A DNA stretch of 63,996 nt, filler included, from Malassezia furfur (taxonomy: Eukaryota), in NCBI GenBank assembly GCA_052055015.1. It is 26 parts of 26 records of this genome, joined end to end, with 100 filler letters (N's around TTAATTAATTAA, not from the genome) between each part and the next. Parts side by side here need not be neighbours in the genome. Positions count along the whole stretch, not along the records: positions 59,431 to 61,738 come from JBQJIT010000938.1; 25 more parts are not named here. The stretch is one strand, 5' to 3'. The notes beneath the pieces were generated by a model that saw only the letters and a list, made by a program, of their open reading frames with translations, made no database searches and was not told the DNA's origin. The translations under genes and the position numbers were made by a program. Shown piece by piece: positions 6,399-61,738 of this stretch (position 1 is the stretch's first letter; each line of letters starts with the position of its first letter).

Positions 6399-7377
6399 AT
6401 GGCCGAGCTGGACAGTGCGTGTGTGCCGCTCACCCAGAACTCGCGATCCGCGGCGTGCGCTCGTTCGACCCCAAGGCGGTGCACATCATCCAGTTCTTCA
6501 AGCCGCTCACGGTGATCGTCGGGCACAACGGCAGCGGCAAGACGGTGCGTGCACAGCTGACCCCAGACGATCGTCGAGTGCCTCAAGTATGCGGCGACCG
6601 GCGACCTGCCGCCGAACACCAAGGGCGGCGCGTTCGTGCACGACCCCATGCTCGCCGGCACCGACACGGTCAAGGCGCAGGTGCGCCTGCGCTTCCGCAA
6701 CACGCACGGCGTCCGCATGAGCTGCGTCCGCAACGTCCAAGTGTCGCGCAAGCGCACGGGCGCACTCACACTCAAGACGCTTGAGGGCGTGATTGGCGTC
6801 GACGACGACTCCGTGGACGCACACACGGTACGTGCGCCCACTCACCCAGCGCGCGGCCATCTCGACGCGGTGCGCCGAGCTCGACCAGGAAATGGCGCAC
6901 CTGCTCGGCGTCTCGCGTGCGATCCTCGAGCACGTCGTGTTCTGCCACCAGGAAGAGTCAAACTGGCCGCTCTCGGAGCCGGCCGTGCTCAAGAAGCGCT
7001 TCGACGAGATCTTTGAAGTGACACGCTACACCAAGGCGCTCGACGCGCTCAAGGCGCTCCGCAAGCAGCGCCAGCAGGACGCGCGCGTCGACGACGCCGA
7101 GCTCCGTGCGCTCCAGCACGACAAGGAGCGCGCCGACGCCGTCCAGCGCACACTCGACACGCTCGACGCGTCCATCGCCGAAAAGACACGCGCCGTCGAG
7201 GCGCTCGAGACCGACCTCGACGCGCGCACCGCCGCGAACGACGCACTGCGCGACGCCGCCGCACAGTTCCGCGACGTACTCGCGCGCGCCGCATCGCTCG
7301 AGGAGCGCCGCGACCTGTACGCGTCGAGCGCCGCCGAGCTGCGCCGCTCCGCGACGCTGCGCGACGCGCCGATCGCC
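6399..7377 (+). CDS. RAD50: Rad50 N-terminus (partial); introns 6415-6437, 6545-6566, 6828-6849
   Basis: Spliced: [17 protein letters not shown]...[40 protein letters not shown]...[20 protein letters not shown]. Confidence 0.97.
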
Positions 7378-18453: not shown

Positions 18454-19129
18454 ATGGCGCGCCTGGGGGCCTGGTATCACCACTGTTTCGAGACGCGCCC
18501 GTGGGCGACGCTGATCGCCACCAACGGCACGCTCACGCTCGTGGCCGACGCGCTGGCGCAGAGCTACGAGCGCGAAAAAACCGCACTCGCACGCGAGCAT
18601 GAGAAAATTTTGCCCACGCCGACCGAGCATGTCCCGTGGGACTGGCACCGCTCGGGACGCTTCCTGCTCTTTGGCTCCGCGATGGCGCCGCTCCTCGGCG
18701 AGTGGAACCACTTCCTGGAGCACCGATTCCCGATGCGCAGCCCGACGGGCAAAATTATCGCAATGGGCCTCGTCCGCCGCGTCGCGATGGACCAGCTGCT
18801 GTTGTACGTGGCGCGCTCACCCCAGCGCACCGTTCGGCCTCGCGATGTTTGTCGGCTCCATGGGCATCATGGAGGGGCGCCGCACGCTCGACTCGCTCCA
18901 GGCCAAGTTCCACGACGTACGTCGCGCTCGCACTCACCGATCAGGTCTATGGCCCCGCGCTGCTCGCCAACTGGTCGATCTGGCCGCTGCTCCAGCTGTT
19001 CAACTTTGGCGTCCTCCCGTTGCGGTACGCTGCGCAGCCCACTCACACAGCTTCCGCGTGCCGTTCTCGGCGTCGTGCGGCGTCGCATGGACGCTCTATC
19101 TCTCGATCCTGAACCAAAAGGATGTGTAG
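18454..19129 (+). CDS. SYM1: Mpv17/PMP22 family protein (Sym1-like); introns 18804-18825, 18917-18944, 19025-19050
   Basis: Spliced: VADALAQ...WDWHRSGRFLLFG...RRVAMDQLLFAPFGL...ALLANWSIWPLLQLFNFGVLPLRFRVPF...WTLYLSILN. Confidence 0.9.
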
Positions 19130-40023: not shown

Positions 40024-41310
40024 ATGGCTGCGGACGCTTCCGGCGCGGCGCCGGACGAGCGCTACGAAGAAAAAGACGAGGCGTACTTTTCGTACTATGC
40101 AATGCTCACGCACCAGGCGCAGATGCTGCAGGACGCGGTGCGCACGTCTGCGTACCAGAGCGCGATCCTGCAGCACGCGCCCGCCTTCCAAGGTATGTCC
40201 ATCTCTCACGCAGACCGCCGTGTGATGGACGTCGGCGCGGGCAACGGCATCCTGTCGCTCTTTTCGATCCAGGCGGGCGCCGCGGTGGTGTATGCGGTGG
40301 AGGCGTCCGGCGTCGTGGGGTGCCTGCACCAGCTCGCGGCCGCCGCCGCGGACGCCGAGGCGCCGGTGAATGCATGGGCACGCGACAAGCTCGCGGTCGT
40401 GCACGGTAGGTGCGCGCCACTGACGCAGCGCGCGTAGAGGACGTGACGCCCGCGATGCTCGCGGAGCGCACGCCGGCGGGCGCGCCGGCGGGCGAGCAGG
40501 TGGATACGATCGTGTCCGAGTGCCTGGGGGTGGTGCGTGTCGCGGCTGACGCAGCTTTTGGTGCACGAGCGCATGTGCGAGTCGTTTCTCGAGGCGCGCG
40601 ACCGCTTCCTTAAGCCGGGCGGCGCGCTGTTCCCGCGCACCGGCACGCTGTGCTTCTCGCTGCTGTCCGATGCGCGGCTCTGGCAGGAGGTGCACACGCG
40701 CGGCGAGTGGTGGAACACGAGCAACTTCTACGGCGTGGACCTGACGCCGTTCCTCGGCGCGTCGCGTGCCGAGGCGTTTGCGAGCCCGGTGGTCGGCTGC
40801 TTTTCGCCGACGCACATCGTCGGGGCGCAGACGGACGCGGCGACGGCGGCGCTCGTGTGCCCCGAGGACGCGGTGAACAGGTACTTGGTCGACTTTTCCA
40901 CCGTGTCGCTCGAGGATCTGCGCACGTTTGACGTGCCGATCGCGTTCGACTGTGTCACGGAGCCGGTGGTGGTGCATGGGCTCGGCGCGTGGTTCGACCT
41001 GTCGTTCCTGCAGCCCGGCGAGGAGGCGGACGAGGCGGCGGGCGCGGGCGTGATGACCACGTCGCCGTTCGCGCCCGCGACGCACTGGGCGCAGGTGCGC
41101 CTGCTGTTCGCCGAGCCGCTCGCGCTGAACCGCGGGCAGTGTGTGCTGGGCACGCTGCACTTTTCCGCAAACGCGAGCCGCTCGTACGACATCCGCGCCG
41201 AGCTGCATGTCCCGCTGTCTCCCGAGACGCCCGAGGTGCCGCTGTACCGGCGCACGGCGCTCTGGAAGCTCGACAAGCAGACCTACTCCTGGGAAACGAC
41301 GGGCGCGTAG
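40024..41310 (+). CDS. CARM1: Type I arginine methyltransferase, CARM1/PRMT4-like; introns 40193-40213, 40406-40428, 40533-40554
   Basis: [83 protein letters not shown]. Confidence 0.85.
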
Positions 41311-56919: not shown

Positions 56920-57168
56920 NNNNNNNNNNNNNNNNNNNNNNNNNNNNNNNNNNNNNNNNNNNNTTAATTAATTAANNNNNNNNNNNNNNNNNNNNNNNNN
57001 NNNNNNNNNNNNNNNNNNNTGCGCTGACGTCGGCGGGCCTGGGCGACGTCGGGGCGCGTGCGGCGGCGCCCGACGACACGCAGCGGCGCGGCCCCATCAG
57101 TCTGCATGCGGCGGCAGTGAACAAGGCGGCGGCGCGTACGGCGGTGGCTACGGGGCGGGTGGGGGACG

Positions 57169-58634
57169 TCAAAAGTCGAGCGAGTGCTTCGTCGTGGCTG
57201 GGTCAGTAGGGCGCACGTACCGCGTTTCGCGTCGCGCACCTCGCGCAGGAGCTTGGCGGTGGCGCGGTCGAACTGCTCGACGAACGGGCGCAGGCTCGTC
57301 TTTTCCCACTCGCCCTTGGCGTGCGGCGCGGCGGGCGACGACGCGGCGTGCTGCGCCTTGTGCCGGTTGAGCTCGCGGAGGAGCTGCGCGACGGTGGGCG
57401 CGCCGCTGTGCGGGTCAAAGTGCTGGATCTGCTCGACCTCCAGCGGCACACACACGCGCCCCGTCGAGGGGTGCACCACGAACGGCGACTTGAGCAAGTG
57501 GTTCTGGCGCTTGGACACCTCGGCGTCGATGCGGGGGTAGGTATACTGCAGCACGATGTCCTCGATCGCCGCGACCCACGCAGGGCGCACGCGCTCGGCG
57601 CTCTTGCTCGCCGTCTCGAGCACGTCGTCCCACTTGCGCACGCTCGAGCGCGGCGCGGCGGCCCACTTGGCCTCGAGGCGCGCGACCGCCTCGCTGTCGT
57701 TTGCCGGGAGCAGCGCGAGCAGCGTCTCCCACCGCGCGCGCTCGCGAAACACGTCCTGGTCGGTGAGGATCACGTCGAAGAACGCGCGCTGCAGGGGGCC
57801 GCGCGCGGCGGACGCCGTGCCCTGGGAGCCCGAGTTGGCCACGACCTCGGCGCCGAGCGCGCGGCGGAGGCTCGGGTGCAGCACGCGTGGCGCGCCGGGC
57901 GCCGCGTTGCCGAGCGCGACCTTTTTCGTCTGGTTTGCGCTGCCGCGGATCACCTCGGTCCAGCCGACGAGCGCCTTGCGTGCCTCGTCGGGGAGCGCGC
58001 GTGCCTCGGGGTCGGACACCCAGCAGTGGATACCGCGGCGCCCCGAGTACACCCAGACGATGTGGCGGAAGCCGAAGTCTTCGCGGAGCACGCTGTCGAG
58101 CACCTCGACGGCGACCGCGATCAGTTTCCAGCACCGCGCGCAGATCTGCTTGTCGGAGCAGCACGTGCGGATCTCGTCGTAGTCGGTCATGTCGATATCG
58201 AACACGAGCTCGCGCTCCACGGGCCGGAAGCTCGCCTTCTGCATCGTCTTGCGGTCCTTGGGCTTGGCGCTGTACACCGGCCCGATCTCGAAACGCGACG
58301 GGTTCAGGCGGCACACCTCGCGCTTCCACTCGTCCCAGCTCGAGAAGCTCTGGTAGCGCAGGTACGCGTCGTTCTGCAGCGTGAACGCAAACTCGCGGTG
58401 CGTGAAGCTGCGCGTCAACGCCACGTCCTGGTTCAGCCAGGTGAAGAGCGAGCGGAAGGGCAGCAGCCGGCGGTAGTAGGCGAGGAGCGCCATCGGGTCG
58501 ACGGACTCGTCGCGCTCGAGCGCATGCTCGTCGACCATCGCCAGCACATCGTCCAAGCTCGTGTCGGTGTACAGCGGCGCGGCGGGCGCCGGCGCCCCCG
58601 CACTCGTCGCACGCACCGGGTCGTGGGCGGCCAT
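57169..58634 (-). CDS. PRI1: DNA primase small subunit; intron 57198-57220
   Basis: REFAFTL, ERELVFDIDMTDYDEIRTCC, WVYSGRRGIHCWVSD, YPRIDAEVSKRQNHLLKSPFVVHPSTGRVCVP. Splicing gives the end KRATTKHSLDF*. Confidence 0.97.
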
Positions 58635-58692
58635 GGCGTGTCCGAAAGCCGCGCGCGCGCGCGTCGCGCGTGTCTTGGTCAGCCTCCACACC

Positions 58693-59330
58693 ATGGTCCG
58701 GTGGGCGAGCGGACGGACCAAGGTGCAGCTGAAGCTCGCGGTGCAGCGCGCGCACATGCTGCAGGCGAAGCGCGAGTCGCTTGCGAAGAAGGCGCGGCGC
58801 GATATCGCGGACCTCGTGGTGCGCGGCAAGGTCGAGACCGCGCGCGTCAAGACCGAGTCGCTCATTATGGACGACGTGCACATCGAGCTGCTCGAGCTGC
58901 TCGAGCTGTACTGCGAGACGCTCTACGCGCGCTTTGCGCTGCTCGAGATGCCGGGGTACGTATGCCGCACTCACACAGCACGGAGCCGCCCGAGGCGATC
59001 CGCGAGCCGCTGCTCGCGATCCTGCATGCGGCGCACCGCACCGAGCTGGCCGAGCTGCACACGCTGCAAGAGATGCTCGCGGCGCGGTACGGCCCCGAGC
59101 TCGCCAAGGACGCGCTCGAGAACGTGGACGGGTGCGTGTCGCCGCGCGTCACGCGCAAGCTGGCGTTCCACATGCCGCCGCCGGAGCTGGTGGATGCGTA
59201 CATGGACGAGAGTACGTCGAGAGGCTCACGCAGTTTGCAAGGCGTACGATGTGCCGCTCCCCGGCGCACACGAAGATGCGGGCGCGGCGGACACGGCGGG
59301 CGCGAGCGGCGAGGCCGCGGGCGACGCGGC
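58693..59330 (+). CDS. IST1: ESCRT-III associated Ist1 (3' partial); introns 58956-58978, 59212-59233
   Basis: TKVQLKLAVQR...RRDIADLV..GKVETARVKTESLI.DDVHIELLELLELYCE...LVDAYMDEICKAYDV. Confidence 0.93.
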
Positions 59331-59430
59331 NNNNNNNNNNNNNNNNNNNNNNNNNNNNNNNNNNNNNNNNNNNNTTAATTAATTAANNNNNNNNNNNNNN
59401 NNNNNNNNNNNNNNNNNNNNNNNNNNNNNN

Positions 59431-60722
59431 GCCGCGGCGGGCCGCGTGTGTCGCCGCCGCCCCCGGGCACGCGGCGCCTGGGCGAGCGCGTACGTGTGCG
59501 CACGCTGTGGGACATCTGCCCCAAGGGCTTTGAAGAGACCGACCCGATCTCGGCCAAGGCGACGGGCTACTTTGGCGCGCCGGTGAACACGAGCGTCGTG
59601 GCGATCATGGCCGAGGGCATGGACGACCCGGCGCCGCCGGCGGTGTTGGCCTCCTCGCGGCTCGACCCGCTCGCGGCGCAGGCCGTGTACAACGCCAAGC
59701 GCCACCAAAAGCTGCGCCGGCTGTACGTCGGTAACGTGTCGCCCGACATGTCGGCGACGTCGCTGCGCGCATTTGTGAACCACACGATGAACGAAAAGAA
59801 GCTCACCGCGAGCCTCGGCAAGGAGCCGTGCATGCGCGTGGACCTGGTGCCCGGCGAGTCGCGCGCCGTGCTCGAGTTCCGGCACCCGGACGACGCGACG
59901 AACGCCATGTTCCTCGACGGGCAAGAGTACCAGCGGCGTGCGCTGAGTTTTGCGCGCCCCGACGACTACAGCGGCACGGACACATCGTATGCGACGATCA
60001 AGTCGCTGCAGACCACCGTGCCGGATAGCCCGAACAAGCTGTACGTCGGCAGCATCCCGACCTTTCTCAACGCCGAGCAGGTCCAGGAGCTGCTCAAGGC
60101 GTTTGGCGAGCTGCGCCACTTTGACCTGCTCGTGGACCACAACGGCAACTCGCGCGGGATTGCGTTCTGCGAGTTCTTCGACGAGACCATGACGCAGATC
60201 GCCATCGAGGGGCTCACGGGCCTCGTGGTCGGCGAGCAGCGCCTCGTGTGCAAGCGCGCCGTGCCGGAGAAGGACGAGCGCGAAGAGGTGCAGGAGACGT
60301 CGGACACGCCGACGCGCGCCATGACCATGCTCAACATGGTCACCCCCGAGGAGCTCGAGGACGACCAAGAGTACCAGGACATTCTGGAGGACGTGCGGGA
60401 GGAGTGCACCAAGTACGGCACGATCACCGACATCCGCATCCCGCGGCCGGCCGCGACGCTGCAGAGCGACGCGTCGCGCTCGTGGCAGCGGCGCGCGGAC
60501 AACAACCCGGACGCGCCGCTCGGCAAGGAGCGCGTGGGCGTCGGCCGTGTGTATGTGCAGTTCGCCACCGAGGCGCAGTGCACCGCGGCGCTGCAGGCGA
60601 TTGCGGGCCGCCAGTTTGACGGGCGCATGGTGATCTGTGCGTACATCAAGGACGAGGCGTGGCCCTCGGACGAGGACGGCCCGAGCGCGGCGTCGCAGGC
60701 CGTTGACCGTAGGGAGGGGTAG
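59431..60722 (+). CDS. U2AF2: Splicing factor U2AF large subunit (U2AF65/U2AF2), 5' partial
   Basis: ULM RTLWDICPKGFE, RRM1 RRLYVGNV, RRM2 VPDSPNKLYVGSIPTFLNAEQVQELLKAFGEL, UHM MLNMVTPEEL...EECTKYG...IAGRQFDGR. Confidence 0.92.
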
Positions 60723-60815
60723 GCCCATGTACAAATCTGCATACGCGCTATCCACACACATACATACACAGCCGCCGGCGCCGGCGCCGCCCACGCGACG
60801 CAGCGCGCGCGTGCC

Positions 60816-61738
60816 TTACCGCTCCCGGTTGCGGAAGTGGAGGAGCTTGGGCAGCTCCGTGATCGGGCACGCCTTGCGCAGAAACTCGTGCTGGAGCAGC
60901 TCGTCGGCGGTCGCGCGGCTCTTGACGTCCGCGCAGAGGCACACCGCAAGGAATCCCTTGAGCTCGCGCGAGAGCAGCTCGGGCTTCTTGAGCGTGGGCG
61001 TGCCGTTGGTCGCGATCATGTAGAGCGCCTTGAGCGGCTCCTCGTCGAGGTACGGCGGCTCGTTCTCGATCATCTCGATCGCCATGATGCCGAGCGACCA
61101 GATGTCGACCTTGGCGCCGTACTCCTTCTGCTTCACGACCTCGGGCGCCATCCAGTAGGGCGTGCCGACCATCGTCGCGCGCTTGCTCTTTTGGTCGGTG
61201 AGCTTCGCACAGAAGCCGAAATCGGTGATCTTGACCTGGCCGAGGTTGTTGAGCAGGATGTTGTCGCTCTTGATGTCGCGGTGGATGATGTTCTGGTTGT
61301 GCAGGTGCTCCAGACCCTTGCACGTCTCGAGCGAGATCGCGGCGATCTGCGACTCCTCCAGCGTGTTGTTGTCGATCACGTCCGTCAGCGCACCGCCCTC
61401 CATAAACTCCATCACCACCCACAGATCCGTGTCGCGCACCAGGAACGCGTCCAGGAAGTTGACAATGTTGGGGTGCTGCGACTCCTTCATCACCAGGATC
61501 TCGTTGATAATGAGCTCCTTGCGCGGCTGGTGCGCCAGATCCATCGCCTTGATCGCCACTCGCTGCCCGGTCGCGAGCGCCTTGGCCACATACACGCTCC
61601 CGGACGCACCCTGCCCAATCTTTTTCACCTTGCTGTACAATAGGTTGGGGTCGTCGCGGCTCACCACACTGCGCAGCATCTCCATGATCTGCGCCTCATT
61701 CAGCGTGCTGATCCGCCGGTCGCCCCGGCGCGCCGGCG
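60816..61738 (-). CDS. CLA4: PAK kinase Cla4, kinase domain (5' partial)
   Basis: [79 protein letters not shown]. Confidence 0.92.

Follow-up and report, generated by a model that had tools for sequence, protein, structure and literature searches.

The gene described here raises the question of what becomes of U2AF65, the textbook reader of the polypyrimidine (Py) tract, in a lineage whose introns appear to offer no such tract; the extent to which this protein functions through protein contacts alone is debated. The window (the whole stretch of DNA that was analysed, 63,996 nucleotides (nt) from Malassezia furfur, assembly GCA_052055015.1) carries a U2AF65 (U2AF2) large-subunit orthologue at 59433..60722 on the + strand, with an open reading frame (ORF) of 429 codons (59433-60719) and a TAG stop at 60720-60722. 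A sequence-only reading of this gene had proposed that U2AF65 has lost base-stacking aromatics and may have become a protein-only bridge between the branch-point binder and the AG reader, co-evolving with introns of 21-32 nt. In the present analysis, the RNA-contact residues of RRM1 were found to be scrambled across the genus, and the parts that dock on partner proteins were retained. It is considered probable (roughly 0.6) that RRM1 was relieved of selection when the Py tract collapsed, and that U2AF65 survives as a bridge between SF1 and U2AF35, perhaps with residual RNA contact by RRM2.

The 5′ end of the gene is cut by the edge of its contig piece (59431-61738), which follows an N spacer at 59331-59430. 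The encoded protein was 99% identical to a protein of 500 amino acids (P0002), whose cluster contains M. furfur and M. brasiliensis proteins; the next-best matches were from M. obtusa (89%), M. yamatoensis (87%) and M. japonica (76% identity). The window protein was aligned with the best 120 of 643 database matches (E ≤ 1e-10), comprising 19 Malassezia-clade proteins and 101 from other fungi that span other Ustilaginomycotina to chytrids. In the tree, the 19 formed a monophyletic group nested in Ustilaginomycotina, with M. furfur, M. brasiliensis, M. obtusa, M. yamatoensis, M. japonica, M. vespertilionis, M. sympodialis, M. caprae, M. equina, M. nana, M. globosa, M. arunalokei, M. pachydermatis, M. 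cuniculi and Malassezia sp. CBS 17886; M. sympodialis, M. caprae, M. equina and M. nana shared one cluster. The top named matches were Malassezia orthologues and proteins named 'pre-mRNA splicing factor U2AF large chain'. Every named Malassezia species had one entry among the best 120 of 643 matches, and the check for a second paralogue, which the sequence-only reading had called for, revealed neither a canonical U2AF65 paralogue nor a second U2AF65-like Malassezia protein among those 120. Judged from these matches, the source is a Malassezia furfur-like yeast, and the gene appears to be its only U2AF65 (U2AF2) orthologue.

All parts of a U2AF65 downstream of the truncated N-terminus were recognised on the + strand. 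The ULM, the motif predicted to bind U2AF35 (residues 20-36, 59490..59540), contains W26 at 59508-59510, in RTLWDICPKGFE, and is followed by RRM1 (residues 94-180, 59712..59972), the inter-RRM linker (residues 181-198, 59973..60026), RRM2 (residues 199-277, 60027..60263), a short RRM2-UHM linker (residues 278-292, 60264..60308) and the UHM, the SF1- and SF3b155-binding domain (residues 293-415, 60309..60677). In a phmmer search against PDB, residues 89-276 aligned to RRM1,2 of human U2AF65 (E 2.6e-33) and residues 293-341 to its UHM (E 5e-20). The ULM column was W in 18/19 Malassezia-clade proteins and in 80 of the 82 non-gapped other fungi. Within the UHM, G392, R393 and F395 were invariant in 121/121 aligned sequences, the window protein reading R393-Q-F395 in the R-x-F motif. 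The ULM tryptophan and the UHM, which had been called recognisable from the sequence, were thus both confirmed. The Pfam family RRM_1 was reported for RRM2 alone (residues 203-271, E 2.2e-21), and RRM1 matched RRM_occluded at 31.7 bits (cut-off 30); this match was dropped as evidence, since canonical orthologues of other fungi carry the same family. An AlphaFold2 model of residues 86-285, built from a 60-sequence alignment, reached a mean predicted local distance difference test score (pLDDT) of 90.8 (90-97 over the RRM1 block), contained two beta-alpha-beta-beta-alpha-beta units and had human U2AF65 RRM1,2 as its 16 best Foldseek matches. According to this model, the folds of RRM1 and RRM2 appear to be kept in tandem. 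The modelled domain arrangement was unlike every solved U2AF65 state (root-mean-square deviation 10.8-16.9 Å, TM-score 0.40-0.47), and nothing was drawn from it.

The aromatic residues in the RNP motifs of RRMs generally stack on bases. The roles of most of the RNA-contact residues, numbered here as in human U2AF65, were taken from descriptions of the human protein in PMC4786784 and PMC3616741. The fold of RRM1 is kept in the window protein and its RNA-contact surface is degenerate. RNP1, which reads ESRAVLEF (59856-59879), carries K195→E, N196→S, F197→R and F199→V relative to human; the beta4 segment S-F-A (residues 172-174, 59946..59954) aligns to human K225-I-R227, and both residues described as uracil-O2 donors in PMC4786784 are lost (K225→S, R227→A). 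The RNP2 motif LYVGNV (59721..59738) has its Y in the window species, a residue that is absent in 15/19 Malassezia-clade proteins. The sequence-only translations of both RNP1 motifs, ESRAVLEF and, in RRM2, RGIAFCEF (60153-60176), were exact, and the human motifs given for comparison (KNFAFLEF and KGYAFCEY), together with the substitutions F197→R, F199→V and Y302→I, were borne out by the phmmer alignment.

Across the alignment, the RRM1 motifs of the 101 other fungi were nearly fixed (RNP2 LY[VI]GN[IV], RNP1 K[GNS][YFW]AF[VIL]EF), as was RNP1 of RRM2 (KG[FY]AF[CF]EY). In Malassezia, RRM1 RNP2 was diverse (LVVSNV, LDVSGI, LHVSPV, LQIDSV and others), and so was RRM1 RNP1 (ESRAVLEF, EGTALLEF, RNYAMVEF, KHSAWLEF and others). 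Aromatics at RNP2-2, RNP1-3 and RNP1-5 of RRM1 were present in 4, 9 and 8 of the 19 Malassezia proteins, compared with 99, 100 and 100 of the 101 other fungi; no Malassezia protein retained all three, and the losses differed between species. At individual contact positions of RRM1 and its N-terminal extension, the retention in Malassezia and in other fungi, respectively, was as follows: R146, 6/19 and 97/101 (Q in the window protein); Q147, 5/19 and 93/101 (K in the window protein); R150, 13/19 and 99/101; Y152, 3/19 and 99/101; K195, 3/19, with E in 9, and 98/101; F199, 2/19 and 98/101; K225, 0/19 and 93/101; R227, 3/19 and 100/101. The window protein did not carry the canonical combination of RRM1 RNP2/RNP1 motifs and Py-tract contacts.

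RNA-face loss appears to be heavy in RRM1 and partial in RRM2, where it concerns Y302, N289 and the C-terminal extension. Within RRM2, K260 was kept in 18/19 Malassezia proteins, and an aromatic was found in 19/19 at F262 and in 19/19 at F304, the latter being singled out as the RRM2 residue that stacks on uracil (PMC4786784). The C-terminal part of the linker was also kept (V254 in 18/19, D256 in 17/19, T252 in 14/19). The residue at Y302 was aliphatic in 15/19, N289 was retained in 0/19, and G338 in 1/19 as against 99/101 other fungi. The window protein follows this pattern: RRM2, with RNP2 reading LYVGSI, has the equivalents of K260, F262 (as Y) and F304, together with Y302→I and N289→D (at residue 231); the N-terminal part of the inter-RRM linker has diverged and its C-terminal T-x-V-P-D preserves T252, V254 and D256; the RRM2-UHM linker covers the lost equivalents of G338 and K340 (G338→E, K340→D). 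The proposed loss of RNP1 aromatics therefore held for F197 and F199 of RRM1 and for Y302 of RRM2, but did not extend to the uracil-stacking F304 of RRM2, which is retained. The short RRM2-UHM linker was found to be a feature of the whole genus, as the spacer of 23 residues in the window protein compares with medians of 25 in Malassezia (23-27, n=19), 47 in other Ustilaginomycotina (36-59, n=44) and 42 in other fungi (32-60, n=57). The inter-RRM spacer measured 21 residues in Malassezia and 26 elsewhere.

The distribution of these losses over the domains was uneven. Among the columns conserved at 90% or more in the 101 other fungi, Malassezia kept 17/33 in RRM1, 23/42 in RRM2, 3/6 in the linker and 26/28 in the UHM (Fisher's test for UHM versus RRM1, p = 5e-4; about equal for UHM versus RRM2). 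The lost RRM1 columns had a mean within-genus entropy of 1.99 bits and 5.6 residue types per column, and such a scattered mosaic fits relaxation rather than one adaptive switch. The lost RRM2 columns, at 1.15 bits and 3.3 types, more often showed one new and often conservative residue. These patterns indicate that the RNA-face substitutions are part of a relaxation of constraint that affects the RRM1 RNA surface throughout the genus, and that the ULM tryptophan and the UHM are under normal constraint. The cruder measure of identity to non-Dikarya fungi gave a consistent picture, the values for Malassezia and for the others being 0.36 and 0.56 in RRM1, 0.29 and 0.64 in the linker, 0.53 and 0.76 in RRM2, and 0.46 and 0.46 in the UHM.

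A strict composite intron motif (GT[AG]NG[TC], 4-20 nt, CTNAC, 0-6 nt, YAG, with 18-40 nt permitted) occurred at 36 sites on both strands of the window, compared with 5.3 ± 2.3 (maximum 11) in 200 dinucleotide shuffles. All 36 sites were 21-32 nt long (for example 6545-6566, 18804-18825, 18917-18944, 19025-19050, 40406-40428 and 40533-40554); the 5′ splice site was almost always GTACGT or GTGCGT, and the CTSAC box lay 2-3 nt ahead of CAG. The typical form is GTACGT, 6-11 nt, CTSAC, 2-3 nt, AG. A looser pattern yielded 54 candidates, and these were put through a frame test, in which removal had to restore the frame or remove a stop, with both flanks coding under a codon model trained on the window; 19/54 passed. 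The 19 supported introns had a median length of 23 nt, with GTACGT in 13 and a CAG end in all 19, and their branch boxes read CTGAC (9), CTCAC (9) or CTTAC (1). Between the presumed branch A and the AG there were 3 nt in 13 introns, 4 nt in 3, 5 nt in 1 and 6 nt in 2. No pyrimidine run exceeded 4 nt, and apart from the 5′ splice site no T run exceeded 2 nt. The description of introns of 21-32 nt without a Py tract, whose branch site abuts the YAG, was thus upheld, with CTSAC 2-3 nt (range 2-5) before the AG and no pyrimidine run longer than 4. The IST1 gene, on the contig piece next to the U2AF65 piece in the window, serves as an example of the intron type of this genome: introns of 23 nt (58956..58978, +) and 22 nt (59212..59233, +) were supported by the frame test and their junctions confirmed by homologues, since both are read straight through in M. 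furfur Ist1 (P0206) and no gap appears in the alignment of four non-Malassezia homologues.

Other intron screens were set aside. An open-frame screen combined with GC content at third codon positions gave 233 candidates, mostly antisense-frame artefacts, and was abandoned; a dynamic-programming gene parser found the short introns, along with many spurious long ones and merged opposite-strand genes, and was used as a sanity check only; a loose motif screen returned 53 sites against 22.8 ± 5.2 in shuffles, a high chance background, and was replaced by the stricter composite motif.

Short introns have been reported for other members of the genus: the 5,350 introns of M. sympodialis average 30 bp (PMC5389616), those of M. 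restricta have a median of 30 (PMC9241646), and 'very short introns' of Malassezia are mentioned in a review (PMC7426719). Those of relatives are described as longer: the median is 95 nt in U. maydis, with a polyT peak 15-40 nt from the acceptor (PMC2483917), and the means are 426 bp in P. hubeiensis and 63 bp in C. neoformans (PMC8476143). The human minimum for the distance from branch point to AG is given as 8 nt (PMC8624252), and the 3 nt presumed here is shorter. The sequence-only reading would have been undermined by the same substitutions in relatives with long introns; Malassezia-type substitutions were found in 0/101 non-Malassezia fungi, which included Pseudozyma hubeiensis and a Cryptococcus relative of C. 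neoformans (the aligned Cryptococcus proteins come from species of the genus other than C. neoformans). Since the relatives with canonical U2AF65 motifs have longer introns, this result was counted in favour of an explanation by intron collapse.

The scenario we favour would run as follows. Human U2AF65 is described as binding nine contiguous nucleotides (PMC4786784), and Malassezia introns, having shrunk to about 21-32 nt, would have no place for a Py-tract footprint of nine nucleotides. RRM1, normally the reader of the AG-proximal half of the tract, would then have been freed from purifying selection by the collapse of the tract, its contact residues drifting separately in each species with the fold kept. 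SF1 on the CTSAC box and U2AF35 on the CAG would position U2AF65 through protein–protein contacts, on a branch-site/3′ splice-site element of about 10 nt, and U2AF65 would then recruit the U2 small nuclear ribonucleoprotein (snRNP) via the UHM and the basic N-terminus. The protein-docking parts, namely the ULM tryptophan (for U2AF35) and the UHM (for SF1/BBP and later SF3b155), stay constrained. RRM2 and the adjoining linker, with their core contacts kept, may still touch a few nucleotides, and residual RNA contact by RRM2 is judged as likely as none. The term 'protein-only bridge' goes further than the sequence shows, since RRM2 and the C-terminal part of the inter-RRM linker keep the main uracil contacts. 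In a bolder form, which we hold only tentatively and at less than even odds, Malassezia would possess a naturally minimal system of 3′ splice-site recognition: SF1 and U2AF35 alone would read the composite element of about 10 nt (CTSAC, 2-3 nt, AG), and U2AF65 would act as a shortened tether with RRM1 off the RNA, perhaps as a UHM-like docking module. If this were true, the genus would represent an extant stage intermediate between spliceosome assembly of the U2AF type and that of the Mud2 type.

Several points weigh against the favoured scenario. In tree path lengths, measured on a fixed maximum-likelihood topology from the Ustilaginomycotina ancestor to the tips, all three domains were faster in Malassezia than in the others, with 1.88 versus 0.50 for RRM1 (3.7-fold), 1.46 versus 0.28 for RRM2 (5.2-fold) and 0.85 versus 0.37 for the UHM (2.3-fold), and a 3.4-fold acceleration for the concatenated domains; RRM2 is thus the most accelerated by ratio. 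Because the UHM and the rest are accelerated as well, a general acceleration of the lineage contributes, and the change is not as specific to the RNA face as had been worded. The association between U2AF65 and the introns rests on a single clade (n = 1), so that 'co-evolving' is too strong a word for what amounts to one evolutionary event. Conserved U2AF1/2 are reportedly retained in myxozoans that have introns of 22 nt (PMC13644364), and tract loss need not cause RRM decay. On the intron side, introns were called from motif and frame, two of them also by homology, and branch points from the motif alone. The frame test was not passed by 35/54 candidates, many of which are multiples of 3 without a stop and cannot be judged by it; some of the 35 are surely chance matches. 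Moreover, the search relied on a CTNAC or CTNAY box and ended each intron at the nearest AG downstream, so that longer or otherwise-built introns would escape it. A link between RRM1 decay and ultra-short introns lacking a tract is plausible and held up under such refuting checks as were run.

The acceleration of the UHM (2.3-fold) and of the concatenated domains (3.4-fold) would also be expected if the lineage, with its small, compact genome, were simply evolving fast, the RRM changes being drift with compensation and Py/RNA binding by RRM1-RRM2 being essentially preserved; the intact RRM folds and hydrophobic cores and the retention of K260, F262 and F304 in RRM2 agree with this. Such generic evolution fits poorly with the retention of 26/28 conserved columns in the UHM as compared with 17/33 in RRM1, with the concentration of RRM1 losses on known RNA contacts, including the charge reversal K195→E in 9/19, and with the 19 frame-supported introns, which offer no uridine or pyrimidine stretch for binding, and we regard it as distinctly unlikely. 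Some replacements, on the other hand, are fixed in the whole genus (F→L161 in 19/19; in RRM2, Y→F211 and L→V266 in 19/19, and R at K329 in 19/19) or limited to I and V (L→I/V208 of RRM2), the lost RRM2 columns are low in within-genus entropy (1.15 bits), and RRM1 is still constrained as a fold, with a within-genus identity of 0.49. These features would suit a re-specialisation, in which RRM1, and RRM2 with it, was remodelled for a new ligand, either a short RNA element or a protein partner; candidates would be the C/G-rich nucleotides between branch site and AG, exon sequence, or a UHM-like docking role of RRM1. We consider this unlikely, as the RNP and beta4 contacts of RRM1 show no new genus consensus (5-8 residues per site) and no partner or RNA element was identified.

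A further explanation would place recognition of the 3′ splice site elsewhere, with an SPF45, PUF60 or RBM39-type UHM protein, or SF1 and U2AF35 alone, taking over, and U2AF65 heading toward a Mud2-like dispensability. There are precedents in the replacement of U2AF by SPF45 in human short introns with truncated Py tracts (10.1101/784868) and in S. cerevisiae Mud2, which is described as dispensable and recognisable only in its UHM (PMC8624252). In Malassezia, however, conservation of the ULM tryptophan, the UHM and the RRM2 core extends to all or almost all of the 19 proteins, which argues for continuing U2AF65 function and so against a hand-over. The best 120 of 643 matches contained no second U2AF65-like Malassezia protein, other UHM proteins not having been searched for. 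Such a hand-over is rated very unlikely.

The order of an Arg-rich N-terminus (seen in P0002), the ULM W, RRM1, linker, RRM2 and the UHM R-x-F is shared with canonical U2AF65 of human, S. pombe (Prp2/U2AF59) and other fungi. The Malassezia proteins differ from it in showing no conservation of the RRM1 contacts in RNP2, RNP1, beta4 and the N-terminal extension (R146, Q147), in the loss of Y302, N289 and G338 from RRM2, and in having shorter inter-RRM and RRM2-UHM spacers. S. cerevisiae Mud2 is described as a U2AF65 homologue in a lineage with a weak or dispensable Py tract, its UHM-SF1/BBP link being preserved and its RNA-binding part diverged (PMC8624252, PMC2377449). In Mud2, by contrast, the UHM alone is described as recognisable, and budding yeast as lacking U2AF35 (PMC8624252), whereas in Malassezia both RRM folds persist together with the ULM W and the RRM2 core contacts; the window protein, with a recognisable ULM, is not of the Mud2 type. 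It is best classed as a U2AF65 orthologue without the canonical RNP motifs of RRM1. Malassezia U2AF65 would appear to be in a state between canonical U2AF65 and Mud2, one that arose independently in a basidiomycete.

With respect to the introns, Yarrowia lipolytica, Giardia and Trichomonas are reported to have no 3′ Py tract and a branch point anchored near the AG, 2 nt away in Y. lipolytica and 4 nt in Giardia and Trichomonas (PMC2483917, PMC2911113). Ultra-short length is not general among the introns of these species (those of Y. lipolytica have a median of 204 nt; PMC2483917), whereas the whole Malassezia intron measures 21-32 nt, and no tie to U2AF65 sequence is made in the relevant parts of those papers (PMC2483917, PMC2911113). 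Given the precedents in PMC2483917, the intron architecture itself is of an already known kind and does not form the undescribed system that had been suggested. The SPF45 system of human short introns shares truncated Py tracts and the lack of reliance on U2AF65 RNA binding (10.1101/784868); it differs in being a factor swap inside one genome, whereas in Malassezia U2AF65 itself is altered across the genus.

The literature search revealed no paper linking Malassezia with U2AF, the branch site or the Py tract. A comparison of splicing signals with splicing factors across eukaryotes was reportedly made by Schwartz et al. in 2008, before most Malassezia genomes were available. Two modes of U2AF65 action, tract binding or positioning by SF1 and U2AF35, are distinguished in a review (PMC8624252); a culturable and transformable genus without the tract, whose RRM1 has decayed beside an intact ULM and UHM, could provide a natural test of the positioning mode. 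On the practical side, gene finders that expect a Py tract will mis-call introns of 21-23 nt, and the orthologues are poorly named in public records. Most Malassezia U2AF65 orthologues are named 'hypothetical protein', and that of M. sympodialis (P0163, in the cluster of P0011) is named 'Similar to S. cerevisiae protein SNP1 (component of U1 snRNP)'; degenerate RRMs probably mislead automatic naming.

The window is not contiguous DNA. It consists of 26 joined contigs, each of about 2.3-2.4 kb and in descending order of length, separated by 100-nt N spacers with TTAATTAATTAA in the middle. Genes on either side of any of the 25 spacers (2437-61838) are not genomic neighbours, and many genes are truncated by contig ends. 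A Pfam scan of 26 other ORFs of the window detected no further splicing factor. A DNA primase small-subunit gene (57021-58922, −) and the IST1 gene (58693-59330, +) lie on one contig, and the minus-strand primase ORF extends spuriously over the 5′ region of IST1, as is expected at a GC content of about 68%, where antisense frames stay open.

The N-terminal domain of the window U2AF65 lies beyond the contig end; the N-terminus of P0002 is rich in Arg, Asp and Glu and has no RS dipeptides. In the NCBI M. furfur model P0122, about 11 residues before the ULM (59433-59470) are in another frame and read RRAACVAAAPG, where P0002 and the window frame read GGPRVSPPPPG; the P0122 reading is obtained from another frame of the window, and SPPPPGT agrees with the other Malassezia proteins compared. 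A pair of indels between strains or an annotation error may account for this difference. Downstream of U2AF65, a convergent protein-kinase gene (ORF 60819-61736, −; Pkinase E 3e-75) was found with a stop-to-stop gap of 93 nt (60723-60815), which illustrates the compactness of this genome.

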